From: an uncultured candidate division Zixibacteria bacterium
Lineage (GTDB): Bacteria > Zixibacteria > MSB-5A5 > RBG-16-43-9
Length of the DNA: 64,000 nt
Direction of reading: 5' to 3'
NCBI GenBank assembly: GCA_963713865.1
Contig: OY970208.1
Span: 2,624,001 to 2,688,000, forward strand
Shown here: positions 8,910 to 54,349 of the stretch, one piece after another
Layout of the letters: each line of letters opens with the position of its first letter
Numbering within the stretch: the stretch's first letter is position 1
Position numbers and translations under genes: made by a program
Notes under the pieces: model-generated
What the model saw: the letters and a program-made list of their open reading frames with translations, nothing else
Told to the model about the DNA's origin: nothing
Databases searched by the model: none

Positions 8910-9308
8910 ATCATTCCTTTTAAATCCTAACTTATATACGGAAAAAACAGTGTCAAGTCAGAAATTATAAAACCAAGCTAAGTTCGTTTCTCGATACTAT
9001 CATTGCGAGTCTCGCCAGAGGCGGACGAAGCAATCCGTTGATTTTTTTGTATATTATTCCAAACATAAACCAACACTTCAATCTGTAGCTGCTTGATTTA
9101 TCAAGCCTTATTGTTCTGATTATTTCGTAGAGACGCATAGCATGCGTCTCCATACCTCTTAGACAATGCTGCCATAGTCAAACCCTATCCTACCCTCCCC
9201 TATAGGGGAGGGAATATGTCCCCTCTCCTCTACGAGCCGCAAAGCTTTTAACGGCCTACGGGAGAGGGTCAGGGTGAGTTCACGCCCCTACAAAAAAAGG
9301 GGATAAAA

Positions 9309-9343
9309 AAATCCCCCGCCCCGATTTTAATCAGGGCGGGGGA
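9309..9343 (-). terminator. Rho-independent terminator after dockerin peptidase gene
   Basis: tcccccgccc...gggcggggga stem followed on the minus strand by a T-run. Confidence 0.6.
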
Positions 9344-9380
9344 CAATCTCCTTCTCAATCACAAGATTCATCCTGAGGGT

Positions 9381-36068: not shown

Positions 36069-36130
36069 GTAGGGACAGGGCTTGTCCCTGTCCGAACCTT
36101 AATGCGGACAGCCACAAGGGCTGTCCCTAC
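36069..36130. repeat. REPIN-like doublet of inverted GTAGGGACAG REPs
   Basis: GTAGGGACAGGGCTTGTCCCTGTCCG-N10-CGGACAGCCACAAGGGCTGTCCCTAC; first 10 nt identical to the REP inside the RAYT gene. Confidence 0.8.
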
Positions 36131-36265
36131 ATTAACTAATATTTAGGTGACCGTCGGGTCCCCTGACCCGACGGTAGCCTTGCCAGGTCAGGGGACCTGG
36201 CAAGCACTGTAAAAAGCTTTACATTACAGAAGTATCTTATAAACACTTTCAAGGAAGAATATAAC

Positions 36266-37162: not shown

Positions 37163-37345
37163 AGCAGTTGTTTTGGAGTATCAACCTCTCCTGCGGTGGC
37201 TACGATCCCGCCCCCCCGTGGGGCGCCAGAACATAGTCTCCGTTTCTCGGACAGGTTTATCAAATCCGGCAGGTCAAAAGCCCCGCGCTTCTGACATAAT
37301 GAACAGTGTAAGTAATAGTTCCTGACAGAACAAGAAGAATTGCTA

Positions 37346-38809
37346 TTATCTTTGTGTATTCTCATCAAGTGTAACAAATTCATAACCTTCTTTTTTCAAC
37401 TCCTTTATAATTACAATTAGTGCCCTTATCATGTTTTCTCTATTAATCTCATGTTTTAAATTCACACCGTCGTGCAGAACAATTATAGAACCTGGATGAA
37501 CTTTTGAGAGAATTTTTTTTGCTATTTCTCTTTCCGTTGTTCCCTGCACATAATCTGTCGTCATATCATCCCAAGTAAACATAGTGTATCCTTTTTGATG
37601 TATGACCTCATCCAACCAGATCGATCTTAATCCATGAGGTGGACGAAATATTTTAGGCGATTCTCCCGTTGCATTGTAAATTGCTTCTTCAGCTTTATCA
37701 ACCTCGCTTAGAATTAACTTTTTGCTCTCCAATGGTAATAACCAAGGATGTGTGTAGCTATGATTCCCAATAGCATGTCCATGAACTGCTATTTCCTTGG
37801 CGATTTCCGGATATGTTTCAACATTTTTCCCTATAAGAAAAAATGTTGCTTTGACACCCTCTCTATCAAGAATGTCTATAACTTCCTTTGTGTATTTACC
37901 GCTAGGCCCATCATCAAATGTAAGTGCCACTAATTTTTTATGAGTGCTAATATTATAAATCACTTTTCCAAAGACTTCTGATTTTGGTGAAGTGGATGCG
38001 TATACAAAAAACACAACTGACCCCAGTACACACATTATTGTTGCAAATCTAAATAGCCATTTATGATTGGTCAGGCTAAACGATCTAACTGGAAGATAAT
38101 TAGAAAAAAATATAGAGAAATGATTAAATAGGTATATAGATTGGGTTTTCAGCAATCCCTGTCTAATATATCTTCTTGCTGATGTTGAAGTATATAGGTT
38201 AGGTAGAAAGGCAATGGATCCTTCTTTTGAAATTCTTATTGATATGTCAGTATCCTCGCCATAGAATTTTATATTTGTATTAAAACCGCCAATTTTTTCA
38301 AGAATGTACTTTCTAACAGCGAAATTACCGCCTATAACAAATTTGGGTAAATTGAAAGTATCAAGTATTTTACTATAGAGAGGACGAGCAACTTTGAATG
38401 CGAACCATATAAAAATATTCGTTTTCCAATTACCATCATAAAAGAAAAAGGGATTCGTTATTGCAGATATTTCGCTATGATTCTCAAAGAACTCAAAGAC
38501 TTTTGAAAGATACGATGGTGGAATAACGGTATCTGCATCTATATACAAGAGTATATCACCATTTGCCATTCTCCGACCTGTTTCTCTTGCTTGAGGCAGT
38601 CCAACCCGTGGTTCGAAAACTACATTAGCTCCAAGTTTTTTTGCTATTTCAGATGTTTTATCCGTGCTTCCATTATCAACTACTATTATCTCATAATCGC
38701 TAAAGTCTTGTGATTTGACAGACCTGATGCAAGATTCAATGTACTTCTCTTCATTACGAGCCGGTATAATGACAGAAATTTTTTCTTGGTTAACTTTTGA
38801 ATCGATCAT
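37346..38809 (-). CDS. GT2 glycosyltransferase fused to NodB-type polysaccharide deacetylase
   Basis: IIPARNEE, VDNGSTD, IDAD, GED, TSARR; TM; LTFDDGP, NHSYTH, FRPPHG, IVLHDG. Confidence 0.9.
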   Translation of the reverse strand: MIDSKVNQEKISVIIPARNEEKYIESCIRSVKSQDFSDYEIIVVDNGSTDKTSEIAKKLGANVVFEPRVGLPQARETGRRMANGDILLYIDADTVIPPSYLSKVFEFFENHSEISAITNPFFFYDGNWKTNIFIWFAFKVARPLYSKILDTFNLPKFVIGGNFAVRKYILEKIGGFNTNIKFYGEDTDISIRISKEGSIAFLPNLYTSTSARRYIRQGLLKTQSIYLFNHFSIFFSNYLPVRSFSLTNHKWLFRFATIMCVLGSVVFFVYASTSPKSEVFGKVIYNISTHKKLVALTFDDGPSGKYTKEVIDILDREGVKATFFLIGKNVETYPEIAKEIAVHGHAIGNHSYTHPWLLPLESKKLILSEVDKAEEAIYNATGESPKIFRPPHGLRSIWLDEVIHQKGYTMFTWDDMTTDYVQGTTEREIAKKILSKVHPGSIIVLHDGVNLKHEINRENMIRALIVIIKELKKEGYEFVTLDENTQR

Positions 38810-39400
38810 TCATGTTCCCATAGCATTTTTTAAATATTCATAAAGTTCATATCATTATTAAAAATGTCCTTGTCCAATTCGTTATTCTACCCACCAGTTC
38901 ATCCATAAAAATTAAGAATTTTTTCATATCCATTTTCCCCCCGAATCTATTCTTGAAAATCGCTTCTTAAATATTATTCTATTTTCTTGAAGAATCCCGA
39001 ATCTCCTTGATTGGGTTAACCATTCTTATTTTTTAAGATTCTGTCTCTCTTTCCGACTTTTGGTTTTGTGGTTTTTATCTGATTCTGCTTCACGCCTATT
39101 TATCGTCCCCATCTTCTTCACTCCTGGCAAGCCCTTTAGACTTTATCTCCTTCGGTTCTTCATCTCACATGCCTATCTCTTGCTTATATGGTTTCCTCTA
39201 AGAACCTTTGTCTGCTTTGAGGCTAGCCCCGAACCCTCGCAGGACAGGTGCCCGGCATACCTGACAAATCAGTAGATCAGGAACATAAAGTTCCTGATCT
39301 ACCATTAAACTCCTCAACTTTTCAACCGTTTTTCTGAGGTTGTGGACGAGTTTAGCAATTTTCTCATTCAAAATTCTAAGTCCGTCGCCACTATAGTCTG

Positions 39401-39811
39401 TTATTTCTTGGTGACGTGCTCTCTTTTCACCGGCTGAACTTTCATACTAATCCGAGTGGCTATCTTTTCAGCTGCTTCAGTTTTATAGCTTATACTGACC
39501 TTTTCCCCAGTAGAGAAGTTTTTGAGAGTTGCAGTTTTCCCTGCTTTTCTGAAAGTAGCCTTAGGGTCAATTTTGAAAGTCTCCCCCTTACCAGATTTAT
39601 CTTTCACGGTAATTGTAGAAGTAGTGGTATCTATCGAGAGTATCTCTCCTGATAAAACTAATGCTTTCTCAACCTGAGTTCCTTTGACTGGTTGACCACT
39701 TTTCTTTGGCTGTTCCGGAGTGGTTTGCTGTTGACCCCACACAGATGCTACGCATCCGAAAACAAATAACAGCGCTAGTATTAATGTCAGGGTTTTCATT
39801 ATTCTGTTCAC
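39401..39811 (-). CDS. Small exported protein (OB-fold-like, DUF5666-like)
   Basis: AAAGGAGGTG region at start; signal peptide; GEILSID...ITVK...F...GEKV.I.Y.....A..I. Confidence 0.6.
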   Translation of the reverse strand: MNRIMKTLTLILALLFVFGCVASVWGQQQTTPEQPKKSGQPVKGTQVEKALVLSGEILSIDTTTSTITVKDKSGKGETFKIDPKATFRKAGKTATLKNFSTGEKVSISYKTEAAEKIATRISMKVQPVKREHVTKK

Positions 39812-40171
39812 CTCCTTTCATGGTTTTTGAGGTTACCTGGTTACCCTAAAGTTTTTCTCGTTTCTTATTGTTAATTTTAGTGCAGAAAGTATTTCAGTCT
39901 AAAAAACTATTTAAGCTATATTACGTTGATAAAGTTTGGTATGATTGAAAGAAAATATTCAATTATAACTACTGAGGAAATAAGATTGTAGACAAAAATT
40001 TTCCTGCAGAGGTGATCTCGAAAAATATCGGAAGTTTGAAACGGGATAGGACAGGATTTTTCTGACAGTGTTTGTAGAAAACTTCCTATAGCATAATCAT
40101 TAATTTGCCATTCTTCTTAAGCTCAGCCTTTCAGATCATTTTAGTTCGCTTACGGACCTTTTATCCTTCTA

Positions 40172-40506
40172 CTCGTTTCAGGTACACCAAAATAGACACT
40201 AGAACCAATACTTCAAAAAAAAATGAGAAAAACGAGAAATACAAGTGCCTGTCAAGTTATTTTTCAAGCACTTAAATTTTCTGGCAATGCTACGGGGAGT
40301 CGAACCCTGGTTTGTGCGAATGCATCTTGAGAATGGTTGAGAACCACTGAACTAACTATAGTCGTTTTGTAACTCCTTTATTTGCAAGAAATAACAATTT
40401 AAAACTTTATTTTTCTCCAGTTTTCATTTTTTTTTGTTTCTTTGTGTTTGTTTATGTCTTTTTATCTATTTATGCTCTGGTTGGGACACAAAATGGTCAC
40501 AAGATT
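40172..40506 (-). repeat. tRNA-Glu 3'-half repeat no.1 with flanking arms (attP-like junction)
   Basis: 40282-40347 matches tRNA-Glu anticodon arm to 3' end (degenerate, 18-nt insert); arm motifs at 40181-40202 and 40484-40502. Confidence 0.85.
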
Positions 40507-40617
40507 GATAGAAAATAATTGTGAAGTTTTTTTACGGGATTACCCCTAAATATCTTTTCCGATTCTCTTTACATCTGATTTTTTGCTGCTATGAGATTTT
40601 TTGGTTTAAGTTTTTTC

Positions 40618-40645
40618 TTGACAGGATTCAATTCGTTTCTATATT
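40618..40645 (+). promoter_or_regulatory. Sigma70-type promoter for amt
   Basis: TTGACA-N16-TATATT. Confidence 0.6.
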
Positions 40646-40696
40646 CCTTTCTGTTTTATTTTAAAATTAAATCAACTTCAACAAATGGAGGAATGG

Positions 40697-41916
40697 ATGT
40701 TCGACACCGGCAATACAGGTTTTATGCTCGTGGCAACCAGCCTGGTGATGTTGATGACTCCGGGGTTGGCTTTCTTTTACGGTGGCTTGGTGGGTCGCAA
40801 GAATGTATTGACCATCATGATTCAGAGTTTCGTCTCCATGGGAGTCACCACGATTATCTGGTGGGCCTACGGCTATTCCCTCTGCTTCAGCGGTGGGGTT
40901 GGAGGTATCATCGGGAATCTCGACAAAGCGTTTATGATCGGTGTGACCCTAAATACACTATCCCCTTTCGGAAGCGGAAATATACCTGAATTCGTTTTCA
41001 TGGCGTACCAGATGATGTTCGCCATCATCACACCCGCGCTGATCACGGGTGCCTTCTCCAACCGCATTCGTTTCGGGGCTTATTTGATGTTCCTGGTAGC
41101 CTGGTTGACACTGGTCTATTTCCCTTTTGTGCATATGGTTTGGGGTAATGGCCTACTCGCAAAGATGGGAGTGCTCGATTTTGCCGGGGGAATCGTTGTT
41201 CACAACATTGCCGGTGTGGCGGCTCTGGCATCCGTTCTATATGTCGGACGAAGGCGCATCGGCGACAGCATTCCGCACAGCATTCCGCTGGTTGCACTAG
41301 GTGCCGGGCTTCTCTGGTTCGGATGGTATGGGTTCAATGCCGGCAGCGAGTTGAGGGTTGATGCGGTGACTGGTTTGGCGTTCCTGAATACTGACATTGC
41401 TGCATCTTTTGCCGGTCCGGTCTGGATGTTACTGGCATGGATCTTTGAAAAGAAACCGAAATTCCTGGGTCTGCTGACTGGTGCTGTGGCCGGCCTGGCG
41501 ACCATTACTCCCTGTGCGGGTTACGTTACGCCCACCAGTGCTGCGATTATCGGTATTCTCGCGGGCACCGCGTTTGCTATTTCGCCGTTAATCTGAAAAA
41601 CCGTCTTAAATGGGACGATGCTCTGGATGTCTGGGGTGTGCACGGAGTCGGCGGAATGCTGGGAATCATTATGCTGGGGCTGATGGCGAGCAAAGCCGTC
41701 AATGCAGGCGGAGCAAATGGCTTATTCCATGGCAATGCCAGCTTCTTTGTCAAGCAACTGCTGGCAGTTATCGCGTCATCGATCTATGCTTTCGGTTTCA
41801 CCTTCTTGATGCTGCTGATCATTAATAAGATCACCCGGGTTAAAACATCCGAAGGCGAAGAAGAAAGGGGTCTAGATCAATCGCTACATGGTGAGACGGC
41901 TTATGAAGGAATGTGA
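40697..41916 (+). CDS. amt: Ammonium transporter (Amt); frameshift at ~41570
   Basis: GGAGG RBS; MTPGLAFFYGG, YQMMFAIIT, DFAGGIVVH, LWFGWYGFNAGS; second frame VCYFAV...WDDALDVWGVHGVGG; both pore His present. Confidence 0.92.
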
Positions 41917-42149
41917 TCAAAGCCACACGTAAATCGATAGCCGTGATAGCCCGCTCTCTCGTGTCTGCGCCGAAGCCATTAATGGAAGGTGACTCGGCGC
42001 TGTTGACTGACCCAACGAGTTGGTTGCTGAGACCGGCTTGTGAAATTCGACCATCCAAAGCCAAAGGAGAATGATATAGCAACTTTTCAGGTGGATATTG
42101 ATTTCTAACGTTTACAACTGAAGTTTATAAAGATTCCCCTGAAATGTTT

Positions 42150-42388
42150 GACAAAATGGACACAAGCGTTAACACTTCAATAAAATCTGGGGAAAATAAG
42201 AAAAACAAATGCCTGTCATTTTTTTTGACAGGCACTTAAGATTTCTGGTAGCGCTACAGGGAGTCGAACCCCGGTTTGTGCGAATGCATCTTGAGAATGG
42301 CTGAGAACCACCCGAACCAATCAGGGGTATCTTCTTTACTATCTTTGTGTCTATTTATACTCTGTTCGGTCACAAAATGGACACAAGA
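42150..42388 (-). repeat. tRNA-Glu 3'-half repeat no.2 with flanking arms (attP-like junction)
   Basis: 42246-42314 matches tRNA-Glu from the anticodon stem to CCA with an 18-nt insert (42279-42296); hairpin tgcctgtca..tgacaggca; arm motifs 42152-42165 and 42368-42386. Confidence 0.9.
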
Positions 42389-42430
42389 GATGGTTATAGA
42401 ATTCAGAGTACCCTGCTATGTTAGATAAGG

Positions 42431-45400
42431 CTATTCAACTACAATCTCGTCCACAAAAAGCCATGCCTTGTTCCCTTTGCCTGAATGCCAATCCGGGAGG
42501 GTCCCTATGTTTTTTGCCTTAATGCGGATGTATCTTCCGTCTACTTTTTTCAGGCTCAGGGTTAAATCTCTGACAAAATTCCCTTGATTCTCTTTCGGAG
42601 TTTCATAGGTCTCAACTGCTGCGATTTTAAACTTTTTTCCATCATTCGAAACTGCCATTTCTACAGTAGTCGGCAGAAAAATCCAGCTAGGGTTATCAGA
42701 TAAACAACCTAGGCTGATCTTATTCAATTTTCTCTTCTCGCCTAAATCTAAAACTACTTCCAGGTCGTTCCCCTCAAACCCCTGCCAGGCTTTGTCTGAA
42801 TAAGAACTTGACCCTCTTTTCGAGTCAATCAAAGCCTTATCCCCGGCAGCGGAATAGTCGGGAGAATAAGTAGATAGATATTGAACCCCTTTGATGATAT
42901 AAGCATTGTAGTAATTAGCAGTCGATATCGGGCTGGGATTTTTTCCTTTAGCCAGGGCAAGAGCTTTCACTGTGATAGGTTTATCAATCCTGAATGGTTC
43001 TGAATATAAGGGAGAATTACTCGTGGGCTCACTTCCGTCCAGAGTGTACCTTATCCCTGCTCCAGAATCTTCAGGCACAATACCTGCAACAGTTGACTTA
43101 CCTTTCTCAATTATATAAAACTCCGGAGATATCTTAGGTGGCGCGCAGACTTGAAACCTCTCATAATCTGCCTGGTTGTAGTTGAGCGTGTCAAAAAGAG
43201 TGCTCGCAGGAAAAGTGGCATCATTTTCATTCTCAGCCAGAGAGACTGCTAAGATCTTTATCTTTTCATTCTGGGGCAGGGTAATTTCCTTTGCGCCTGC
43301 GGGTAGATTAAGCTTGCATTTATACAGATAGGCATAACTGTAAGGGTCGTCTTCACCGTTTTTGAGATGACGATGCGTGGTAAAATAAGCAACATCACCT
43401 TTTCTGACGTAACCAGGAACAAGTCCCGTGAAGAAAATGTTATCCCATTCATAGTCCCATTCCTGCCATTTGTAACCGTACCATTTGCGATTGTCCCACT
43501 GGCCTATAAAACCATCCCACTTTGGGATATCAACTTCATTAGATTTCCCGTCGAGCTTGAAGTCTCCCCTTGTGTCATTCTCAGTTGAGGCGGCAAGAAA
43601 ATAAATTCGGTTGAATTTGCCTGCAGGCAGAAAAATCGATTGCCCATTGCAGGAAAGCGCATTCTTATCACCATCCTTTTTTGAACCAAGGCTGAACACG
43701 ATTCCTTCACTTATTATCGTGTCAGGTAAAATCTCAGCCGGCAGGGAATTTCCAGAAAGGTCAAAACTCCCATCTGATCTATTATCATTAGTGCTGATAA
43801 CATCAGCATTATAGTTAAGCTGAACTGTCTGACATGTGGGTGGGCTTAATTTCTTAGAGGGGGGAGCAAGTTTGACCGCAAATGCCTTAATATGATAAGG
43901 CTTCATATCAAAAACCAGTTCCCCCTTCTTAATCACAGCCTCAGCTAAAGTTTGTTCCTGTCCGTTCACTTCTTTTGCCGAGATAAGAGGCTTAGCTATT
44001 GTAAGCCTTATATCTTTAGAGAAGACCCCCTTGGTTTCCTGAAGGCGAATTATGATCTCATCGCTATTCTCTCCCTTCTTAAGGGCAGTAACAGCTATAT
44101 CCGGATTACTTAGATGAAGAAATGAAAAAGTTTTTCCCAAGAATCCTTTGTGCGATATGGTTTGAAACGCTAAAAGGGGCTGATTAAGTCTTGCACCCTG
44201 CCAGTTTGAATTCCCAGCTCTCCAATCTCCTCTGTGTCCATAAAGGGCGTAGCAGATCTCGTGTTTGCCAAAATCCTGAGTTGCCTGATCCTTGTAGTCG
44301 TTTCTTACACCAGGCGTATACAGGAGGGTGAGACGCAGAACATTGTCTGCTGGCTTATCCGAGCCGTACTTGCAGTCTTCTAGGATTGAAACACCGTAGG
44401 TTCCACTTGAATCTGTCAGGTCGAACCACTGATGGGATGGCACCTCGAATTTCTTAGGGTCGTTATTTCCTCGTTGGACAATCCCCACACCAGTATTATA
44501 AGAAGCCAGATGATTTGAGACCGCGAGAGGAAATGAGGCTTTGAGAGATGACTCTTTTGTGAACCAGTCTATGTAGTTATAAAATACAATCTGATCTGCA
44601 CTTCCTCCTGCAGACAGACGAATAAGCTGAACGAATTTTGAGCCGCGTGATTCACGCTCTATTTCCAGAGCAACCCGTTCAGGACCTGATTCAACTATGC
44701 AAATGGATGCTGGACCTTCAACATAATCGACCGGAGGATTTTGTCTATCGTTCCAGTCCATATTCCAGGCAGGCCACTGTTGCGGGCGTTCATGCAGGAA
44801 AGCAAGTCGTGCTGGCTCGGATAAGAGTTCACGATTTGCCCTTTTATCATAGATACTTTCAACATCTCCTGAAGAATTCACCTTCACAATATATCTCGAA
44901 TTCTCCAAAGACGAATTTGTAATTTTCAATCCCGCTTCAATTGTGCAGCCTGTTTCTGAAGGACGAACATCGTAAGCCCTGAAACCTAAGGAGGGAACAG
45001 TCGCCAGAAATAAGATCTCCAGCTTGTTTCCTTCGGTTTTGGTGATCTGTGATGGAACTTCATGCTGATCTGGGTCAAAAACCTGTATGGCCTTTGGCAC
45101 GGTCGGAAAGGTTATTCGGGCTTCGACTACCTCTTCTCGTTCTATAGATAAAGGATTGAATACTACCAGTGGAATTCCTTTCACCTGCGTATCCAGATCC
45201 CTGACAACCACACCAACCGCATCTGACAGGACTCCACTGAATTGATTGGCTGCAAGCAGCTCATCATTCCAGGAATATTCATATGCCTTGGGTACACAGG
45301 TGCCTGCCATGATGTCGTGAAACTGAGCACCCAGAACCAACCGCCATGCCTCATTAATTTTGTTTCGAGGATAGGTGATCCCCCCAACCACTCACCAATA

Positions 45401-46434
45401 ACAGAAGAGGCCTCTGCAGAATAAGCTAAAAGCTCATTTTTACGATTCCATCGTTTCATATAAGCTTCCGAAGATATTGAGCCTGCAGAGTGGTTGGTGA
45501 GCAGAAGCTCGCCCTGATAGGTAGGGAGTTTCGATTTCTGCTCAGTTGACAGGTCACTAAAGAATTTGTCAGCCGGCGATGAAATGACATGAATCCCTTT
45601 ATCACTGGTAACGCTTTTCTCAATCCAGTTCACTGACTCCTCTGTGGGTGAGCCTCCCATATCCCCGGTGCCATAATACATATATTCGCAAAAGATTCCA
45701 GCCCTGCTCCCCAGATCAGAAATCCTTTTGGACCATTTTGGACTCTGGCTCAGATCATCTTTAACCTCAGTGCCGTAACTCCCAGGATTGAAGACCGAAA
45801 CCACTGATTCGGAATCCGGCCCTATCCAGGAACCGATATTGAAAGGCAGGCTAACTGCCAGACCCCAGGAAAGTTTCTGGGTGGAGAACCCTTTTATGCC
45901 GCAATGTGCTAAGATGGACGGAAGCGAGGCTGGAAAACCGAAGCAGTCAGGGAGCATATATTCGGAACTGGCTTTGCCAAATTCCTTTCTGAAGTAATCG
46001 TTGCCGTAGAGGACCTGACGGATAATCGATTCAGGAGAAGGTATCAGGGCATCGTTTTCCTCTATGGATGAGCCGCAGGGAAACCACCTGTTTGCAGCAA
46101 CGTATTCCTTGAGCTTTTGGTATTCCTGGGGATAATACTCTTTCATCATCCGGTATCTGTTGGCCCCGCTGAAATTGAAAATGTAATGAGGATATTTCTG
46201 GAAAAGCTTGAAGTTATCCAGCAGGGTGTTTTTTACATACTTGCTTATGGTGGTCTGATAATCCCAGCGCCATTCGGTATCCAGATGACTGTATCCGATG
46301 GTATAAAGTACGGTGTCTCTGGAGAGATCAACCCTGGGTAAATTGAGAACTTCAATTCCGGTCTGGGCAGCCACTGCGGATAGTACAAAATACTGCAGAA
46401 AGATCGCAATTAAGAATCTTTTCAAAGGTTTCAT
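42431..46434 (-). CDS. GH38 alpha-mannosidase with C-terminal FN3-associated and F5/8-type domains; frameshift in G-homopolymer at ~45383
   Basis: Signal peptide; SHLDTEWRW, LPDCFGF, GDMGG, QFHDIMAG, SILEDCKYG, IRYTLDGSEP, WLFVDEIVVE. Confidence 0.9.
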
Positions 46435-46499
46435 CTGGTTCCTCCTTTGGTCTTAAGATGAATTTTGAAAACACCAGAACGTCAAAATTAAGAGACCTC

Positions 46500-47468
46500 T
46501 CATCTTCCTCTTAACTGGTCAAGCAGAACTGCCAGAAGAATAACCACCCCTAATACCACCATCTGCACGTAGGAGCCTACATTCAGCAAATTCAAACCAT
46601 TTCTCAAAATCCCGATCAGCATTGCACCCAAAAACGTGCCGACGATCGAACCTCTGCCGCCAAAAAGACTCGTGCCCCCGACCACCACTGCGGCAATGAC
46701 GTCCATCTCATACATCAGTCCGGCATTCGGCTGTCCTGAGTTCATACGGGAGGCTAAGAGCACTCCGCTGATGGCGGAAAGCACTCCACAGATCAGGTAG
46801 ACTGACCACAGCACCCGATTTATGTTTATGCCTGCCAGTCGAGCAGCTTCTTTGTTTCCGCCCACCGCATATACGTAACGACCGAATTTTGTGTGCCTGA
46901 GCACCACGAAAGCACTCAGATAAATACAAAGCATGATAATGGTAGGAACGGGTATGCCGAATGCTCTACCGCTTCCTAAAAAGCTGAACTCCTCAGGCAG
47001 TCCCCAGATCGGTCTGCCCCCGGTGTATATATATGCTCCCCCTCTCAAAATAGTCATCAAAGCCAGGGTGACTATGAATGGAGTAATATTGAATCGGGTA
47101 ACAAATAGCCCAGCTATAGACCCTGAGCATATTCCGATTAAAATTCCACCCAGAAGACAAAGTGGAAATGATAATGAGAATGGTATTCCCAATTTGAGTA
47201 TGCTGGTTACTACCACCCCGCTGAAAGCAACCATTGCCCCAACCGAAAGGTCGATGCCCGCGGTAAGAATGACAAAGGTCATTCCCGCCGCTATGATTGC
47301 GGTGATAGAAGTCTGAAGTGTGACGTTCAGGATATTTTCCGCAGTAAAAAAATAAGGAGAAAAAACTGAAAAAAGAATCACTTCCAAAAGTAAAGCAGTT
47401 GAGATCCCTAGATCTCCAAATACTGTCTTGAGGCGTTTTTTTTCAGGCTTGATAGCAGTCCCGAACAT
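46500..47468 (-). CDS. rbsC: Ribose-type (CUT2) sugar ABC transporter permease
   Basis: GIDLSVG, PFIVTLA, GGNKEAARLAGI, IAAVVVGGTSL.GGRG; substrate not proven. Confidence 0.85.
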   Translation of the reverse strand: MFGTAIKPEKKRLKTVFGDLGISTALLLEVILFSVFSPYFFTAENILNVTLQTSITAIIAAGMTFVILTAGIDLSVGAMVAFSGVVVTSILKLGIPFSLSFPLCLLGGILIGICSGSIAGLFVTRFNITPFIVTLALMTILRGGAYIYTGGRPIWGLPEEFSFLGSGRAFGIPVPTIIMLCIYLSAFVVLRHTKFGRYVYAVGGNKEAARLAGININRVLWSVYLICGVLSAISGVLLASRMNSGQPNAGLMYEMDVIAAVVVGGTSLFGGRGSIVGTFLGAMLIGILRNGLNLLNVGSYVQMVVLGVVILLAVLLDQLRGR

Positions 47469-47471
47469 ATT

Positions 47472-48971
47472 CTACCCCGGCTTGGTGCCAGTTGCTAAGG
47501 TCATCATTTTTTCCTGGGTTGCTTCCTGACTCGAGAGTACTCCGGTTATACTCCCTTCCCACATCACCGCAAGGCGATGACAAATACCAAGAAGTTCAGG
47601 CAGATCAGAGGATATAACAATGATTCCAATCCCCTCTTTAGCCAGCTGGTTAATCAGGTTATAAATCTCAAGTTTTACCCCAACGTCGATCCCCGCAGTA
47701 GGCTCGTCGAAAATCAGAAGCTTCGATTTTGTGAAAAGCCAGCGGGCCAGAACGACTTTCTGTCTGTTACCTCCACTGAGATTTTCCACTTTCTGGTTGA
47801 TTGAAGGTGTTCTAATTCGCAAAGTCTGTTTAAACTTTTCCGCAACTGAGTTCTCCTTGGCCTGGTCGATAAAAAATCGACTTGCTACCTGGCTGAGATT
47901 TGAAAGGGAGATATTTTCCCTGACGTTCATCTGCATTATAAGCCCGTATTTGTTTCGATCCTCAGTGAGCAAGCCAATTCCTAGGTCAATCGCCTCACGA
48001 GGTGTACTAACCAAAATTTCTTTCCCTTCTAAAAAGATCCTCCCTTTTTCTTTTGGGTCTGCACCAAATATAAGCCTTGCCAGCTCGCTCCTGCCTGCAC
48101 CCACCAAACCGGCCAATCCCAAGATTTCTCCCCGATATACCGTCAGGCTGACATCTTTTAAGATTCCCGAACTTAAGCCCTCTATTCTCAGGACTTCCTT
48201 TCCCTGGTCAGGTTCGATCCTGGGGAACTCCTGCTCTAATTCTCGCCCCACCATCCAGAGGATTAAGCTTCTGCGGTCAGTTTCAGACACCGGGCAACTA
48301 TGTATGAACCTCCCGTCACGAAGTATTGTAAGGCGATCACCGATCTCGAAGACCTCTTCCAGGCGATGAGATATATAAATGATACCCACCCCTTCGGTTT
48401 TCAATTTACGGATCACCGCGAACAGCCCTTTCAGTTCGTTCTGGCTAAGGGATGTGGAGGGTTCATCCATGACTAAGATCTTGACCCGCCTGGATAATGC
48501 CCGGGCAATTTCGACAATCTGTCTCTGTGCCACACTCAAGGAGCTTATCCTGGCTGTAGTTGGAATTTCCTCTTCCAGTTGAGCAAGTATTTTCTGGGCA
48601 TCTCTGTGCATCTTCCTGTGATCAACTAATAATAACTTCCCCTTAGTCGGTTCGTTGCCCAGAAGAATATTCTCCGCTACAGAAAGCTCAGGCACAAGTT
48701 TGAATTCCTGATAAATCATGCTGATTCCATATTTCTGGGCATCAGCAGGTGAATTATACTCGATTTCTTCCCTTTCGATAAGAATTGAGCCCGCATCCTT
48801 TTTAACGGCACCGGACAATATCTTCATCAAGGTAGATTTGCCAGCACCATTTTCTCCCAAAAGGCAATGAACCTCGCCCGCATAAAGCTCGAAATTCACA
48901 TCTGCCAGCGCCACCACCCCGGGGTAGTGCTTGTAAATCCCTTTCATCTGCAAGAGAGGCAGAGCGTTCAC
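47472..48971 (-). CDS. rbsA: Ribose-type sugar ABC transporter ATP-binding protein
   Basis: GENGAGKSTL, tandem ABC domains, LSGGNRQKV, DEPTAGIDVG. Confidence 0.88.
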   Translation of the reverse strand: MNALPLLQMKGIYKHYPGVVALADVNFELYAGEVHCLLGENGAGKSTLMKILSGAVKKDAGSILIEREEIEYNSPADAQKYGISMIYQEFKLVPELSVAENILLGNEPTKGKLLLVDHRKMHRDAQKILAQLEEEIPTTARISSLSVAQRQIVEIARALSRRVKILVMDEPSTSLSQNELKGLFAVIRKLKTEGVGIIYISHRLEEVFEIGDRLTILRDGRFIHSCPVSETDRRSLILWMVGRELEQEFPRIEPDQGKEVLRIEGLSSGILKDVSLTVYRGEILGLAGLVGAGRSELARLIFGADPKEKGRIFLEGKEILVSTPREAIDLGIGLLTEDRNKYGLIMQMNVRENISLSNLSQVASRFFIDQAKENSVAEKFKQTLRIRTPSINQKVENLSGGNRQKVVLARWLFTKSKLLIFDEPTAGIDVGVKLEIYNLINQLAKEGIGIIVISSDLPELLGICHRLAVMWEGSITGVLSSQEATQEKMMTLATGTKPG

Positions 48972-49900
48972 TTATTGGTTTCCTTTTGCAGGGCTTCCCG
49001 GTCAACAATCCCTACTTCCACCGGAACGATTTTCGGCACCTGGATGCCGGAGAAGTAGTCTTTGATTTTATCTATGGTAATCTCACCTATTTTCTTGGGG
49101 TACTGGATCACGTCGGCTTTGAGTGGCGTTTCTTTCAAAATGGCATCCACTGCAGGCGGTGTGGCATCATAACCCACGATTTTGACCTTGGACCGCTTGA
49201 ACTGCTGGACCGCATCCAGCGCACCCAGCGCGCAGTCGTCATTGATCGCAAAAATCCCTTCCAGGTCAGGATGAGCCTGAAGAATATCAGAGGTTACTTG
49301 CATGGCTCTATCCCTTACCCCTTCACCGTTCACCTCAGCCACAATTTTTAGACTGGGGTATTTCCCTATTGCTTCTTTAAACCCCCGGGTGCGATCAAGC
49401 ACTGAAGTGACTGTTGGTTGTCCAATGATAGCTACATTCCCCTTGTCGTTCAAGGTCTTGGCAAGATATTCACCTGCTAATTTTCCTCCTGCAACATTGT
49501 CGGATGCAACATGACAGACCACTTCTCCCTCTTGCGAGGCGATATCCGCACTAAAAACCGGGATCTTAGCCTCATTTGCCTTCCGGATTGCAGGTCCTAC
49601 TCCACGCGAATCCACCGGGCAGACGATGATCGCATCCACTTTCTGGGTTACGAAATCCTCGATCTGGGAGCTTTGCTTGCCTAAATCGAAATCACCGGCT
49701 GTGATAATCAACTTATAGTCATACTTTTTTGCCTCATTCTGCAACCCCTCTTCCAGGTCCTTATAGAAAACATGTGCTCGAGTCAAGAGAGTAACCCCTA
49801 TGGTTTTCTGGAATTCTTTTTTCCTGACACACCCGGAAAATAGGATGGTCAGAGCTAAGAATAATAAAACTAAGTTTTTCAGGATACTATTTTTTCTCAT
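48968..49900 (-). CDS. rbsB: Ribose-type sugar ABC transporter substrate-binding lipoprotein
   Basis: AAAGGAG RBS before ATG 49900; lipobox LFSGC; VASDNVAGG, FAINDD.ALGA, VGYD. Confidence 0.8.
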   Translation of the reverse strand: MRKNSILKNLVLLFLALTILFSGCVRKKEFQKTIGVTLLTRAHVFYKDLEEGLQNEAKKYDYKLIITAGDFDLGKQSSQIEDFVTQKVDAIIVCPVDSRGVGPAIRKANEAKIPVFSADIASQEGEVVCHVASDNVAGGKLAGEYLAKTLNDKGNVAIIGQPTVTSVLDRTRGFKEAIGKYPSLKIVAEVNGEGVRDRAMQVTSDILQAHPDLEGIFAINDDCALGALDAVQQFKRSKVKIVGYDATPPAVDAILKETPLKADVIQYPKKIGEITIDKIKDYFSGIQVPKIVPVEVGIVDREALQKETNK

Positions 49901-50409
49901 TTTTCTTCTCCTTTCAAGACTTTTCATTTTTTATTTTGCCAGGAAACTGAAAATTTGCTCTAAGAAAGTCGTTTTTTAATATATATTGAGCGATTCATAA
50001 GTCAACAGTTTTATCGAAGGAATTATACTTCACGAGAGCAGTCAGTGCATCTGACAGATTTTCAAGTTTTACTTGATTGCGGTTTATCTCTTTTCAGATA
50101 CTGGGTATAAACTGAAATAAATTGATTGCCAATTATAAATATATTTTGAATAACCCTCTACAACTGACAACAACCAAGAAAAACTTTAAGATTTTAATAG
50201 CCTTTAATATCTTGTAAAAGTGGGCTATAGAACGGGAAAAAACTGAAACACATAAGTGGGAAATAACTTGAAAAAATCCGAGGACCTGCAAGGATGGAAC
50301 TTGCCATCTTTTTTTTCGTAAGGCAAGGAACTTTAACAAAACCGTGATAATATGCTACTCTATGAATTCGAATCTCCTGCCAAACGCCTGTTGGTATGAG
50401 TCCTTTTAC

Positions 50410-50563
50410 CCGTTTCTGGTACACCAAAATGATCACAAGCGAACAAACTCTAAAAAAATTTGAGAAAAATGAAAAAAGCTATTTCTGTTAATTCTCTCCC
50501 CGGTAGGCACTTATAAATATTGGTAGCGCTACAGGGAGTCGAACCCCGGTTTGATGGCTGAGA
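50410..50563 (-). repeat. tRNA-Glu 3'-half repeat no.3 with downstream arm
   Basis: 50521-50563 matches tRNA-Glu from the anticodon loop to the 3' end plus CCA (one mismatch); arm ggtacaccaaaatgatcacaag at 50418-50439. Confidence 0.9.
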
Positions 50564-50614
50564 GGCAAGTTTTTCAAAGGTTTTTCAAAAGGCATTTGAA
50601 TTCCCTGGTTATGT

Positions 50615-51967
50615 TCATCCTCTCTCAAACAGAACCGTCACTAACAGAGCGAAAATCCAAATACCCAGAGCGGCTTCAATACCCACAAAAATCCTCGCCC
50701 AGCGAACAGGTTTATATTCAACTGACTCTAAACGGAAAAACTGTAGCCATTGTCTTGGTTGTAATGCTCCATAACCGAAGGTGACAAAGGAAAGAAGACT
50801 GAAGTAAAAACAATCAACAAACAGATATCCTTTACGGAAAGTCAAAATCTCTTCTTTGTCGTTCCATGCACCTGTTTTAACAAAATAGATTCCAGATTTT
50901 GTCTTTGGGAATATGGTAAAGAGCACATAGATGACACTGAAAAGAACGATAACAACGAGTGAATACCAGAAAAGCCAGGTCGGCCGTGAACCATATCCAA
51001 ATGTTTCTCTTAAGAAGATATATCGTAAAAGACCCAAGAAATAATCCCAAGGGTCTTTGATAGTTCTCAAGTATCTCTTGGTCAGAACTTCGTTCTCCCT
51101 AAAATGGAACTCCTTAGCGACCTCATCCATATACTCCTTTTTGTATAGATTTTTTAAATCCCGGTATGTGATCTCTGCATTAAAAAAATCTTCATCTGAT
51201 TTTGTAGAGTCGGCATGTATTTCATCACCTGTAATATAACGACTCTTGAATCTATCTCCCCAATTGATATATCTTATATTCTTTGCTTCTCCTAAATTAA
51301 CCATCCATAAATACGTGAAATCGAAGTATATGCCGAAGAGATTAGCATTTAGTAAATTAGCTTCTCTTAAATTGGCACCTCGCAGTTCAGCACTTCTCAT
51401 ATCCACTTCTTGTAAAATGGTCTTGGAAAGATCTGCCCATTGCAGTTTAGTATTAAAGAGATCTGCACCCTTCAAATTGCACCCACTAAGGTCAGCACCC
51501 TGTAAATTAGCTGCGCTTAAGTTCGATCCTTGAAGATTGATATCGTTAAGTAATGCCCCTTGAAGTTTCAGTCCACTAAAGTTAATATATAACGAATCTT
51601 CCAAAAAACGAAGATCGATTCCTCGAAGGTCATCTCCACGATCATCTTGTGGGTGGATTATTGGATCAAGTTGAGGCACCCAGTTAGGTAGATAGTCTCC
51701 CTTTATAAGTCCCTCTATCACCAACTTTCTAGTTATCTCAGACCATCTGTTTCTTAAGATATCCTTTTCTTTATCTGTATATTGCGACCATTCTCTTAGT
51801 TCCACAGGAGGCGAGTTACGTGAAGATACCCATCCACTCTCGGTATTTATTCCAGCCTGAGTAACAGAAAGTACAGTAATAATACAACAGATGAAACAAA
51901 AGATCACAAAACAGAGGAATTTGAGAGATTTATACTTCACTGAAACTTTATTTCTCACCTTTTCCAC
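50615..51967 (-). CDS. Pentapeptide-repeat protein with C-terminal two-TM ion-channel-like domain
   Basis: A(N/D)LxG repeats; GYGSRP; FYFSLLSFVTFGYG pore signature; IEAALG. Confidence 0.85.
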   Translation of the reverse strand: MEKVRNKVSVKYKSLKFLCFVIFCFICCIITVLSVTQAGINTESGWVSSRNSPPVELREWSQYTDKEKDILRNRWSEITRKLVIEGLIKGDYLPNWVPQLDPIIHPQDDRGDDLRGIDLRFLEDSLYINFSGLKLQGALLNDINLQGSNLSAANLQGADLSGCNLKGADLFNTKLQWADLSKTILQEVDMRSAELRGANLREANLLNANLFGIYFDFTYLWMVNLGEAKNIRYINWGDRFKSRYITGDEIHADSTKSDEDFFNAEITYRDLKNLYKKEYMDEVAKEFHFRENEVLTKRYLRTIKDPWDYFLGLLRYIFLRETFGYGSRPTWLFWYSLVVIVLFSVIYVLFTIFPKTKSGIYFVKTGAWNDKEEILTFRKGYLFVDCFYFSLLSFVTFGYGALQPRQWLQFFRLESVEYKPVRWARIFVGIEAALGIWIFALLVTVLFERG

Positions 51968-52048
51968 CCCTTTTTAGCCACTTAATCAGAAGTCAGATAA
52001 GAAAGAGCAAAATCAATTTTGCTTTTAATTTCAATCAAAATAATCTCT

Positions 52049-52121
52049 TAGCGCTACGGGGAGTCGAACCCCGGTTTGATGGCTGAGAACCACCCGTCCT
52101 GGGCCACTAGACGATAGCGCC
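52049..52121 (-). tRNA. tRNA-Glu (anticodon CTC), CCA not encoded
   Basis: GGCGCTA TC GTCTAGTGGCCCAGGAC G GGTGG TTCTCAG CCATC AAAC CGGGG TTCGACT CCCCG TAGCGCT A cloverleaf. Confidence 0.96.
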
Positions 52122-52242
52122 ACGCGAGCAAGCTGGTTAGCTGGTTAATAGTTCATAGTGGATAGTTCATAGTTAAAACAAATTCCTCTATTCTACCATG
52201 AACTATGAACTAACCACCATTTACCAGTTTCCGGCCGCCACT

Positions 52243-52270
52243 AATATAATATCGGCTTGAAATTAGGCAA
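52243..52270 (-). promoter_or_regulatory. Probable tRNA-Glu promoter
   Basis: TTGCCT-N16-TATATT followed by GC-rich discriminator-like GTGGCGGCCGG. Confidence 0.55.
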
Positions 52271-52350
52271 GAGAAAAATCAAGTCTTGCAGGGGACGCCT
52301 GGTTAGACGACGTCAGAACCCAATTTATTCAACTACTTACCGATAAGAAA

Positions 52351-53097
52351 TCAAATCTGGATCCTGGAAAAAAGGTAGCTGCCCAGCATCAATATCAGGG
52401 CGGTTATAATACTCAAAACAAAAAAATCGGTAAGCAGGCCAAAGTGAGAAACATTTACCAGTGTACCCCGCAGACCATCGACACCATATGAAAGGGGATC
52501 AACGCTTGCAACCAGGTGTAATGCTTTTGGCAACCCCTGCAGGGGAAATAAGGCTCCGGAAAGAAAAAAGAGCGGCATTACCAAGAAGTTCATGATGAAC
52601 TGGAACCCCTGCATATCTTCTAAAACCGAAGCAATGGCTGTTCCAAAAGCTGTGAAAAGCAAGGCGATAAGAAATACAAAGGCAAAAGTAACTGGTAGAA
52701 AACTTATACTCTGGGGTCTAAAACCTACCAAAAAAGAAAGAATAAGCGTTATCAGACCCTGAAATGAAGCTACGGTTGCCCCTCCCAGAGTTCTGCCAAT
52801 CATAATGTATAAACGAGAGGTAGGAGCAACCAGCGTTTCTTTTAAGAACCCGAATTGCCTGTCCCAGATGATTTCTATCCCGGAAAAAACCGCAGAGAAA
52901 AGGACCCCCATGGCAATAATACCAGGCGCCAGAAATTGAATATAACTACCTTCGCCCGCTTTTTTGTAAATAGGATTTAAACCAAAACCCAATGCCACCA
53001 GAAAAAGAATTGGCTGGCCAAGAGAGCCTACGATCCTCGCTCTCGAACGGGAGTATCTTTTTAATTGTCGCAACCAGAGAATATAAATCGTGCTCAT
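52351..53097 (-). CDS. ABC-2 type exporter permease (DrrB-like)
   Basis: FLAPGII, WDRQFGFLKETLVAP, FFLSGALFP, PLSYGVDGLR. Confidence 0.92.
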   Translation of the reverse strand: MSTIYILWLRQLKRYSRSRARIVGSLGQPILFLVALGFGLNPIYKKAGEGSYIQFLAPGIIAMGVLFSAVFSGIEIIWDRQFGFLKETLVAPTSRLYIMIGRTLGGATVASFQGLITLILSFLVGFRPQSISFLPVTFAFVFLIALLFTAFGTAIASVLEDMQGFQFIMNFLVMPLFFLSGALFPLQGLPKALHLVASVDPLSYGVDGLRGTLVNVSHFGLLTDFFVLSIITALILMLGSYLFSRIQI

Positions 53098-53112
53098 GAT
53101 TTTTATTTCGTC

Positions 53113-53898
53113 TTATCTCCGAAATATTCTTCTTCTCATTCTCATGCGATCAATAACATTAGCTTCTTCTTCCCGGATAACCGTACCGGTCAAAGCTAAA
53201 AACGCATCTTCTAAAGAAGTAGTCTTCGTGTTTTGCTTCAGCTCTTCTGGTGTTCCTTTGGCAATAATTTTCCCGTGATCGATAATGGCGATTTTTTGAG
53301 CGACCCTTTCTGCTTCTTCCATGTAATGCGTAGTAAAAAAAACTGTCATCTGCTCCCCGGAGTTTAGATTTTTGATATAGTTCCAAATATGGCTTCTGGT
53401 TTGAGGATCTAAACCCAAAGTTGGCTCGTCTAAAAATAGTATTTTCGGATGATGGATCAACCCCCTGGCAACCTCAAGCCGTCGCTTCATTCCTCCTGAG
53501 TACTTTTTTACAAGCTCGTCTTTTCTATCCCAGAGTTCAACAAATTTTAGCAAGTGTTCTATTCTTTTTCTGCGAATTTCCTTCGGCACTTTATAAAGCA
53601 CGCCGTGAAATTCCATATTTTCATAGGCGGTAAGCTCATCATCTAAACTCGGGTCTTGAAATACAATACCGAAAGAGCAGCGAGCTGCATTTTGCTCTTT
53701 GGAAGGATCGCTTCCATTTAAAGAAATTTTTCCGCTGGTGGGACGCAAAAGTGTAGCTAGTATTTTTATGGTGGTAGTTTTTCCTGCACCATTCGGCCCA
53801 AGAAATGCAAATATCTCCCCCTTACCAACAGAAAAAGAGATATTGTCAACCGCAGTAAAACCATCAAATTTTTTTGTCAAATTTAGAACGTCAATCAT
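53113..53898 (-). CDS. ABC exporter ATP-binding protein (DrrA-like)
   Basis: GPNGAGKTT, YSGGMKRRL, LDEPTLGLDPQTR, TTHYMEEA. Confidence 0.93.
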   Translation of the reverse strand: MIDVLNLTKKFDGFTAVDNISFSVGKGEIFAFLGPNGAGKTTTIKILATLLRPTSGKISLNGSDPSKEQNAARCSFGIVFQDPSLDDELTAYENMEFHGVLYKVPKEIRRKRIEHLLKFVELWDRKDELVKKYSGGMKRRLEVARGLIHHPKILFLDEPTLGLDPQTRSHIWNYIKNLNSGEQMTVFFTTHYMEEAERVAQKIAIIDHGKIIAKGTPEELKQNTKTTSLEDAFLALTGTVIREEEANVIDRMRMRRRIFRR

Positions 53899-54349
53899 AA
53901 TATTATCTTATCATACCCCCCATTAACGATTTTTGTTGGCTCTTCTGCTAAAGATCAAACCAGAACCGGAGGTAGTGGACGATTTTAGAGCTTTTCTGAT
54001 TCACAATCCCCAGTTTATTGACACTAATATAGCATCTGTTAGAGATCAGGCAAGAGAAAAATCAATCTTTCCAAGGGAGTGATGCTACAATCTTACGTCC
54101 TTTTCAATGGTTTTATTACTATGATAAGCTAAACACTCCCTGGCAGGATGGTTTCAAGCGTTATTTTACTGGTCAAACGACATAGGAATAATTCTACATG
54201 CCCCAAAACACCTGAGATTTATACAAAAAATGAAACATTTCCATCAAATAACTGTATATTTTAAAAGACCGAGTTGAGGATATTGAAACATTAGAGTACT
54301 TTTCAAATGTTCACTAAAACATCTACCTTTAAGCTGAGAGAACTATAGT

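Follow-up and report, generated by a model that had tools for sequence, protein, structure and literature searches.

A 12-kb stretch downstream of the tRNA-Glu(CTC) gene in the genome of a Zixibacteria bacterium was probably built by tandem accretion, at the 3' end of that tRNA gene, of at least three element derivatives that lack an integrase and resemble cis-mobilizable elements (CIMEs). The stretch lies in a window of 64,000 nt (bases 2,624,001-2,688,000) of a single-contig genome of 2.72 Mb with 40% G+C, coded G000; positions below are those of the window unless a genome position is stated. Relatives are coded G001 (the sister genome) and G002-G204, and metagenome contigs by codes of the form L0xx. 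An earlier annotation of the same stretch (hereafter the original prediction) had described an integrase-free array of modules bounded by partial copies of the tRNA.

All three partial copies lie downstream of the intact tRNA-Glu(CTC) gene in the same orientation, a placement confirmed by BLAST, ARAGORN and Rfam (Table 1). In BLAST searches of the whole genome they were recovered at E values of 1e-5 to 1e-14, and no further copy of the 3' part of this tRNA was found. Their description as 3' halves applies to copy 3, which runs from the anticodon loop to the end of the tRNA; it does not apply to copies 1 and 2, whose sequence opens with the 5' strand of the anticodon stem and in which an insertion of 18 nt separates the anticodon arm from the T arm. 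Each of the three copies has an encoded CCA followed by a hairpin. The tRNA gene itself has neither the CCA nor the ancestral hairpin, which argues that its present 3' flank is derived from a module. The tails that follow the copies are homologous, as predicted, with 81% identity over 160 nt between the units of copies 1 and 2; a 76-nt family, at 61-75% identity, takes in all three. The 13-pair hairpin past copy 2 is the best terminator-like site of the region, as judged by consensus match only, and the promoter and terminator scans showed a modest excess, with totals of 28 versus 20.5 ± 4.8 and 19 versus 11.2 ± 3.2 in shuffled sequences, respectively. Rfam searches, at gathering thresholds over the whole window and at E ≤ 1 over 39800-52400, returned the two real tRNAs and otherwise only matches at chance level.

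A conserved arm, here called the P arm, precedes copies 1 and 2. In order, it comprises the direct-repeat motif TGTGWCC-ATTT-TGTGWCC, TATAAATAGA and an A-rich stretch containing GAGACAAAA-like repeats, and it measures 75 nt at copy 2 and ~155 nt at copy 1. A -10-like box (TATAAAT) pointing towards the tRNA-like core is conserved within it. A small open reading frame (ORF; MKIQ...) in the long P arm was discarded as a gene, as it showed no conservation across copies. When a degenerate pattern for TGTGWCC-N4-TGTGWCC was run over the 64 kb and over 100 shuffles, five matches were found in the window against 0.63 expected, and none of the shuffles reached five. All five are on the minus strand inside the array, two of them upstream of copies 1 and 2 and three in the tails, where the spacing from the CCA to the motif is 82-84 nt at each copy. 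With their arm motifs and tRNA-like cores, the junctions of this tandem array look like attP sites in their anatomy, in line with the original prediction.

No module encodes an integrase, as had been claimed: domain searches with PF00589 (tyrosine recombinases) and PF00239 (serine recombinases and resolvases) gave no match in the window. Tyrosine recombinases in the whole genome amount to an intact one of 300 aa, a split one and a fragment, all far off, and there is no resolvase-type match. The split one, at genome positions 1580377-1580896, is a second Xer-sized recombinase divided over two frames. The fragment, a 99-aa frame at genome positions 753928-754092, ~1.9 Mb from the window, comprises only the C-terminal catalytic end of a tyrosine recombinase and may resemble integron integrases. 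No recombinase was found beside the same arm motif in this genome, where the three loci are all distant; G056 has two intact integrases in elements that end in such arms.

The link between the arms and integrase-bearing elements emerged from a sequence-only model of the P arm (R1). In this genome R1 matched four places, two of which are the array copies; the other two, at genome positions 2,577,665-2,577,725 and 2,694,919-2,694,979, each have a degenerate tRNA-Ser 3' fragment after them, and tRNA-Ser(GCT) lies on the same strand 11.7 kb upstream of the latter. R1 matches were present in 10 of 34 genomes of the order and in 7 of 151 genomes sampled from the phylum. When 11 matches in relatives were inspected, 10 had a tRNA 3' fragment ~100-190 nt past the motif, derived from tRNA-Glu(CTC) in three cases (G002, G005, G009), from tRNA-Ser in five (G013, G009, G016, G032, G056) and from tRNA-Leu in two (G056, G069); the exception was a weak match, G016:C6. 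The arm family ends islands at tRNA-Glu, tRNA-Ser and tRNA-Leu genes across Zixibacteria.

Two of these islands, both in G056, are complete with an integrase. The first begins at tRNA-Leu(CAG), has a 368-aa integrase gene 110 nt on, and extends over 24 kb to a P arm followed by 24 nt that repeat the tRNA end. The second begins at tRNA-Ser(GGA), has a 367-aa integrase gene ~110 nt after the tRNA, and extends over ~75 kb to a P arm and the tRNA-Ser end. Each P arm is on the same strand and contig as its intact integrase, the attR fragments match the tRNA ends, and the two integrases are 56% identical. A tRNA-Ser island in G013 has a truncated integrase (147 aa, 54-60% identical to those of G056) 1.9 kb before its P arm. 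In three integrase-bearing elements, the stretch from the tRNA to the start of int contains the same two half-sites, 11 nt apart. The motif in the array tails thus occupies the position that it has before int in the intact elements, which suggests that the tails are P'-type arms from which int is missing. We rejected the possibility that a tail is purely ancestral tRNA flank. Its hairpin part is indeed ancestral, as it is present at the empty site of G001; the motif-bearing part is absent there and is found upstream of int in intact elements.

This integrase family is widespread, being present in 110 of 201 genomes of the class, and is absent from this genome and from its sister G001. Among the best 30 integrase loci, 20 abut a tRNA-Ser gene, one abuts a transfer-messenger RNA (tmRNA) gene and nine have no tRNA within 1.5 kb. 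Viral contigs gave no exact match to the insertion-bearing core, and their full-length-type matches to the family integrase were at most 32% identical, with higher values only for short C-terminal pieces.

The tRNA-Glu site is variably occupied among relatives, as had been anticipated. It is empty in G001, where GT21, saccharopine dehydrogenase and UbiA genes are followed by tRNA-Glu and the CCA and hairpin alone separate the last two. In other genera of the family the backbone reads GT21, a variable stretch, tRNA-Glu, DUF5916 and tRNA-Gln. Two of the 34 genomes of the order have the copy with the 18-nt insertion, as do 10 metagenome contigs; of these contigs, nine have the P arm and five have UbiA directly next. 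The cargo before the P arm on these contigs includes SIR2 with a 1076-aa protein, a type III restriction-modification set, a NiFe hydrogenase with a protease, proteins with type IX secretion system (T9SS) tails, and a MarR/DUF116/FmdE/hemerythrin group. On the tenth contig, L034, the full tRNA-Glu itself has the 18-nt insertion, and ARAGORN calls it at 92 nt; genes with a Piwi domain (prokaryotic Argonaute-like) and a DpnII/MboI-type nuclease domain (positions 3-2498 of the contig) lie directly upstream of it. A pattern search of 201 class genomes for contigs with several same-strand copies of the tRNA-Glu 3' part identified G204 (four copies over 27 kb), G185 (two) and G104 (two). Every partial copy in G204 has before it a P arm of like build, with the variant motif TGTGCCA-TATT-TGTGCCA, and the cargo consists of peptidases, a pair of extracytoplasmic function (ECF) sigma genes, a CHAT protein, a TonB-dependent receptor and giant surface proteins. 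PF00589 matched none of the contigs or regions concerned in these three genomes. Modules that have intact arms but no integrase recur in at least four genomes, and tRNA-Glu is a lineage-wide integration hot spot at which defence, redox and transport genes are swapped. The theme of nutrient acquisition, which the original prediction had read from the window, does not extend to relatives, given their SIR2, type III restriction-modification, hydrogenase and redox genes, and two of the "nutrient" genes in the window are frameshifted.

Public-run data were used as Logan contigs, not reads, and the best run contained 23% of the sampled words. The four runs compared with the window (codes of the type X1-X4) offered short contigs only, none of which spans a whole junction-to-junction module, and absence of their coverage over a part of the window is uninformative. 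One run X2 contig (depth 2) that skips 40459-42341 was considered as an amt-less form of the array and set aside, because its shorter side of 29 nt is too weak to use. Upstream of the tRNA there is a separate insertion, an ABC-2 transporter pair (52351-53898, within 52239-54078 on the minus strand). Two copies of a 57-nt direct repeat, 79% identical and without a tRNA-like core, border it (52239-52295 and 54022-54078). G001 and other relatives lack the pair at this position, and a run X3 contig joins 54015 to 52257.

Two cargo blocks of the array could be traced to other places in the genomes of the lineage. In G003 and G004, amt is part of a conserved syntenic core locus; in this genome the orthologues of that neighbourhood lie on either side of genome positions 2,149,204-2,149,262, with amt missing between them. 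The Ammonium_transp family is absent in G001, G002 and G007 and present in G003 and G004, and the island amt shares 97% protein identity with that of G004, as against 70-90% for the flanking orthologues. From the empty core locus, the absence of the family in these three relatives and the difference in identity, it follows that this genus lost amt from the core locus and that the gene then returned or moved into the array. The rbs-GH38 block, by comparison, is 89% identical to that of G001 in nucleotides and 89-96% in amino acids, against 89-95% in amino acids for core genes. In G001 it lies between tRNA-Gln and tRNA-Glu, i.e. on the opposite side of tRNA-Glu. The homology stops just past the P-arm motif, and what follows in G001 is the 3' half of tRNA-Glu(UUC) from the anticodon stem (contig L011, ~9160-9600: rbs-GH38, arm motif and a 46-nt tRNA-Glu(UUC) 3' half, ~150 nt upstream of tRNA-Glu(CTC)). 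Since the homology ends past the motif, one and the same cargo with its motif is joined to different tRNA-like cores in the two sister genomes.

These observations suggest the following mechanism for the accretion of the array. Modules 2 and 3 would be stripped-down derivatives of lineage-specific tyrosine-integrase integrative elements, whose intact relatives have the order tRNA, P' motif, int (367-368 aa), cargo, P arm and tRNA 3' fragment; each of the two modules would have kept the P' arm, cargo and P arm, followed by the tRNA-like core. In lambda-type attP sites, integrase binds the arm sites and strand exchange takes place in the core. By this analogy, TGTGWCC-N4-TGTGWCC may serve as the arm-binding site of the integrase and the tRNA-like core as the place of strand exchange, and repeated integration beside an existing copy would produce hybrid attP-like junctions. 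The array is probably frozen, because the genome has no cognate integrase, and probably decaying, the frameshift in amt being a sign of decay. Mobilisation of the modules in trans is possible.

Several findings weigh against the derivation of the modules from integrase-bearing elements. The arms are homologous to those of such elements; a remnant of int was not found, yet the P' arms are intact up to the expected start of int, unlike what random decay would leave. PF00589 was detected in none of nine complete tRNA-Glu modules, that is, modules closed by a tRNA or a copy at both sides, from five genomes and three families (three modules each in G000 and G204, one each in G185, G104 and G008). 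With three family integrases as tblastn queries, 168,695 nt of tRNA-Glu arrays yielded no match at E ≤ 1. The motif was present 60-90 nt past the end of tRNA-Glu in 4 of 285 phylum genomes, by a pattern that missed the variant tails of this very window, and the three readable cases had no integrase-like ORF; no tRNA-Glu-specific integrase was found in the 201 class genomes or the 285 phylum genomes. The repeated block is also long, from the anticodon arm to the hairpin (~110-160 nt at ~80% identity), which fits homologous recombination too, and the 57-nt repeat of the ABC-2 pair, without a tRNA-like core, implies that another insertion route works at this locus. Finally, the order expected if the newest insert stands next to the tRNA fails, as rbs-GH38 is as diverged as the core genome and the more distal amt looks recent.

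The consistent lack of an integrase would be accounted for if the modules were dedicated cassettes moved in trans by an integrase that was never their own, making the array integron-like on attP-type sites. Put as a statement about the lineage, Zixibacteria would hold miniature integrase-less cassettes (P' arm, gene or operon, P arm and tRNA-like core) gathered at tRNA-Glu by an integrase acting in trans, with cargo that can be re-attached to other cores (Glu-CUC here, Glu-UUC in the sister). If true, this would amount to an integron-like gene-capture system on attP-type sites able to take up core genes such as amt. The nine integrase-free modules and the lack of integrase remnants agree with the idea, as do the capture of the core gene amt and the attachment of rbs-GH38 with its P-arm motif to different cores in sister genomes. 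In the three tails and the tail of L034, moreover, conservation continues past the motif for ~20 nt and reaches exactly the point at which int starts in intact elements. We nevertheless hold such cassettes to be unlikely, both for this array and as a property of the lineage. The search of class and phylum genomes found no tRNA-Glu-specific integrase, the integrase family has no member in this genome or its sister, the two frameshifted cargo genes suggest no current selection, and the short Logan contigs of the four runs contained neither a circle junction nor a clean empty site.

Stacking by homologous recombination is a poorer candidate still, and we give it little weight. It would involve RecA-type crossovers in the conserved tRNA 3' half and hairpin, either out of register or by Campbell-type insertion of circles, duplicating the block each time. 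As expected of donor and recipient copies, the repeats combine length with divergence (160 nt at 81%, 57 nt at 79%), and near-identity extends over 26-40 nt in the tRNA part. Repeats of this sort, lacking an att-like core, flank the ABC-2 module, and the contig of run X3 that joins 54015 to 52257 lacks this module. What homologous recombination leaves unexplained is the recurrence of the P arm and motif, in many genomes, beside fragments that come from three or four different tRNAs, the pairing of P arm and integrase in G056, and the fixed spacing of 82-84 nt from each copy to the motif.

A small RNA gene or degenerate second tRNA formed by the P arm and tRNA-like core, a fixed landmark with its own promoter (TATAAAT) and terminator, would suit the conserved -10-like box aimed at the core, the CCA end followed by a strong terminator-like hairpin and the full-length tRNA-Glu with 18-nt insertion in L034, but is very improbable in view of its patchy distribution (the insertion-bearing copy in just 2 of 34 genomes of the order) and the occurrence of the same arm before fragments of tRNA-Ser, tRNA-Leu and tRNA-Glu(UUC), in addition to which no Rfam family matched and the 5' parts showed no acceptor-stem complementarity on our inspection.

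Table 1 Features of the tRNA-Glu(CTC) array and its distal segment, in window positions.
Feature	Position	Strand	Remarks
Intact tRNA-Glu(CTC), putative attL-side anchor	52048-52122	-	ARAGORN and Rfam
Module 1, 450-aa pentapeptide-repeat and Ion_trans_2 protein	50615-51967	-	
Copy 3	50521-50563	-	tRNA-Glu from anticodon loop to 3' end with CCA; no 18-nt insertion
Tail 3, P'-arm-like	50380-50520	-	Arm motif 50419-50437, 84 nt past CCA
Module 2, rbs operon and GH38 alpha-mannosidase	42431-49927	-	rbsB 48968-49927; rbsA 47472-48971; rbsC 46500-47468; GH38 42431-46434
P arm 2, short form	42315-42389	-	Motif 42367-42385, TATAAATAGA, A-rich stretch
Copy 2	42246-42314	-	tRNA-Glu-like core from anticodon stem; 18-nt insertion; CCA end
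Tail 2	42128-42245	-	13-pair terminator-like hairpin 42206-42238; arm motif 42146-42164
Module 3, amt, only copy in the genome	40685-41916	+	Opposite strand to the rest of the array
Promoter-like site before amt	40618-40645		Consensus match only
P arm 1, long form	40348-40505	-	Motif 40483-40501, TATAAATAGA, A-rich GAGACAAAA-type repeat region
Copy 1	40282-40347	-	tRNA-Glu-like core; 18-nt insertion; CCA end
Tail 1	40164-40281	-	Hairpin; arm motif 40182-40200
Distal segment	37346-39811	-	orf136 39401-39811; GT2 and polysaccharide deacetylase 37346-38809; no closing repeat

The gene content given by the original prediction (pentapeptide/channel, rbsBAC with GH38, amt) was confirmed with Pfam, and the modules as a whole contain only transport, glycosidase, channel and glycosyltransferase genes, with no replication or packaging genes. 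Module 1, between the tRNA and the plain copy, is another type of insert, since its bounding copy is plain and it has no arms: the pattern scan of the 64 kb found no arm motif within it, and its cargo had no DNA match in 40 relatives. In module 2, a 1-nt deletion beside a G6 run near 45386 splits the GH38 ORF. This may be real or an assembly error, as one run X2 contig has an extra base there; a run X2 contig spans 42244-42476, from copy 2 to the end of GH38, with 11 differences. In module 3, comparison with the intact amt of G004 showed two inserted nucleotides, at 41569-41570, that split the ORF. The insertion is not a homopolymer slip, and it recurs in a run X4 contig (41516-41687, no differences), although X4 may be the source sample. 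A fourth module at 37163-40172, suggested earlier, was not borne out by a distal repeat: at UbiA no fourth partial tRNA copy was found, just a GC-rich repeat element. The distal segment is absent between tRNA-Glu and UbiA in G001. A candidate integrase for the GT2-deacetylase module, reached through its homologue in G009, was rejected, as it belongs to a tRNA-Gly site beyond tRNA-Tyr and tRNA-Gly.

Other features of the neighbourhood and genome were recorded alongside the array. The DUF5916/CBM9 gene at 54350-56670 is split over three frames, its pieces corresponding to a single frame in G006 (tblastn), and is the third broken gene within 20 kb. The GC-rich repeats at 36069-36136 and 37170-37266, ~65-95 nt long, occur in many copies here and in relatives at ~85-97% identity and are probably of the repetitive extragenic palindromic (REP) type. 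At genome positions 329436-331789, tRNA-Met(CAT) is followed by three units with an exact period of 344 bp and by a further unit at a greater distance. Every unit contains a small ORF resembling a GIY-YIG nuclease, as judged from its translation, and a nearly full tRNA-Met-like copy. Hairpin insertions are located in the D-arm and variable-loop regions of these copies, making this a second type of tRNA-linked array with an insertion in the variable region. Stray 3' fragments were found for tRNA-Pro(GGG) at genome position 1898987 (+), tRNA-Ser(GCT) at 2706324 (-), tRNA-Asp(GTC) at 2703632 (-), tRNA-Leu(CAA) at 1095989 (+) and tRNA-Glu(TTC) at 805578 (-). They point to remnants of tRNA-targeted integration throughout the genome, though it has no phage-type integrase.

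Zixibacteria are uncultured and their mobile elements essentially undescribed. A tRNA-targeted element family of the phylum is now defined by its arm motif and tied to a widespread family of 367-aa integrases, and the recurrent integrase-less modules, together with the re-attached cargo block, offer a concrete and testable case for the recruitment and shuffling of integrase-less cargo. For annotation, the sole amt of the genome is an island-borne pseudogene, and its "partial tRNAs" are best read as putative att sites.

Integrons are, like this array, series of small, swappable gene units at one site, with intI, attI, a Pc promoter and attC hairpin sites. Beyond that, the integron-like character ascribed to the array by the original prediction is not supported. 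The array is without adjacent intI, attI or Pc, and no inverted-repeat pairs of the attC type bound its modules. Its junctions are instead direct repeats, attP-like units of 240-320 nt with a tRNA-like core; gene orientation is mixed, with amt reversed, and one module is a five-gene operon.

The likeness to tycheposons holds in part. In the accessible portion of the preprint (bioRxiv 10.1101/2020.12.28.424599), these elements of Prochlorococcus are described as lying side by side, parted by partial tRNAs, with degenerate remnants. The tandem insertion with partial tRNA copies is shared, as are the scattered remnants and a cargo for nutrient uptake and defence. Tycheposons are, in the same portion, defined by an integrase together with replication or packaging genes, none of which is in the window; they come from another lineage and habitat and have no sequence relation to the array.

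Parallels are also found in the islands at ssrA in Dehalococcoides (PMC3146451, in part), where 15 islands lack an integration module and the authors suggest that they are CIMEs. As in our window, many islands stand in tandem behind one small RNA gene, with direct repeats of its 3' end, and their number varies between strains. The passages available of that study differ in describing a serine integrase, a 20-bp tmRNA repeat and an integration module that most islands keep. On the Zixibacteria side there is a tyrosine integrase in relatives, a tRNA-like core of 45-70 nt with arms, and no integrase in the tRNA-Glu modules.

The original prediction knew of no description of such an array in this lineage, and a full-text literature search on genomic islands of Zixibacteria, judged by title and abstract, returned nothing on such elements. 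Tandem islands at tRNA or ssrA genes with integrase-less members are nevertheless in print, in the tycheposon preprint, in the definition of CIMEs and in Dehalococcoides. The best match is to CIMEs of the ICESt1/ICESt3 type in streptococci, which, as far as the consulted part of PMC5704250 describes them, have lost the genes for integration and kept their att sites. The modules in the window likewise have no genes for integration or transfer; modules 2 and 3 appear to keep attL-like and attR-like sides, each with the arm motif, and, as proposed for the window, the part of PMC5704250 in question has modules stacking at a target-gene end through site-specific integration, which gives hybrid att junctions between neighbours. 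Relative to that description (PMC5704250, in part), this genome has no resident integrative and conjugative element (ICE) or integrative and mobilizable element (IME) and no family integrase, so that mobilisation in cis is now impossible; int remnants are missing, modules are reduced to as little as a single gene, and the host belongs to a candidate phylum without a cultured system. The kind of array is known, namely islands that grow by tandem accretion at a tRNA gene, and what is new is its occurrence in a little-studied phylum.

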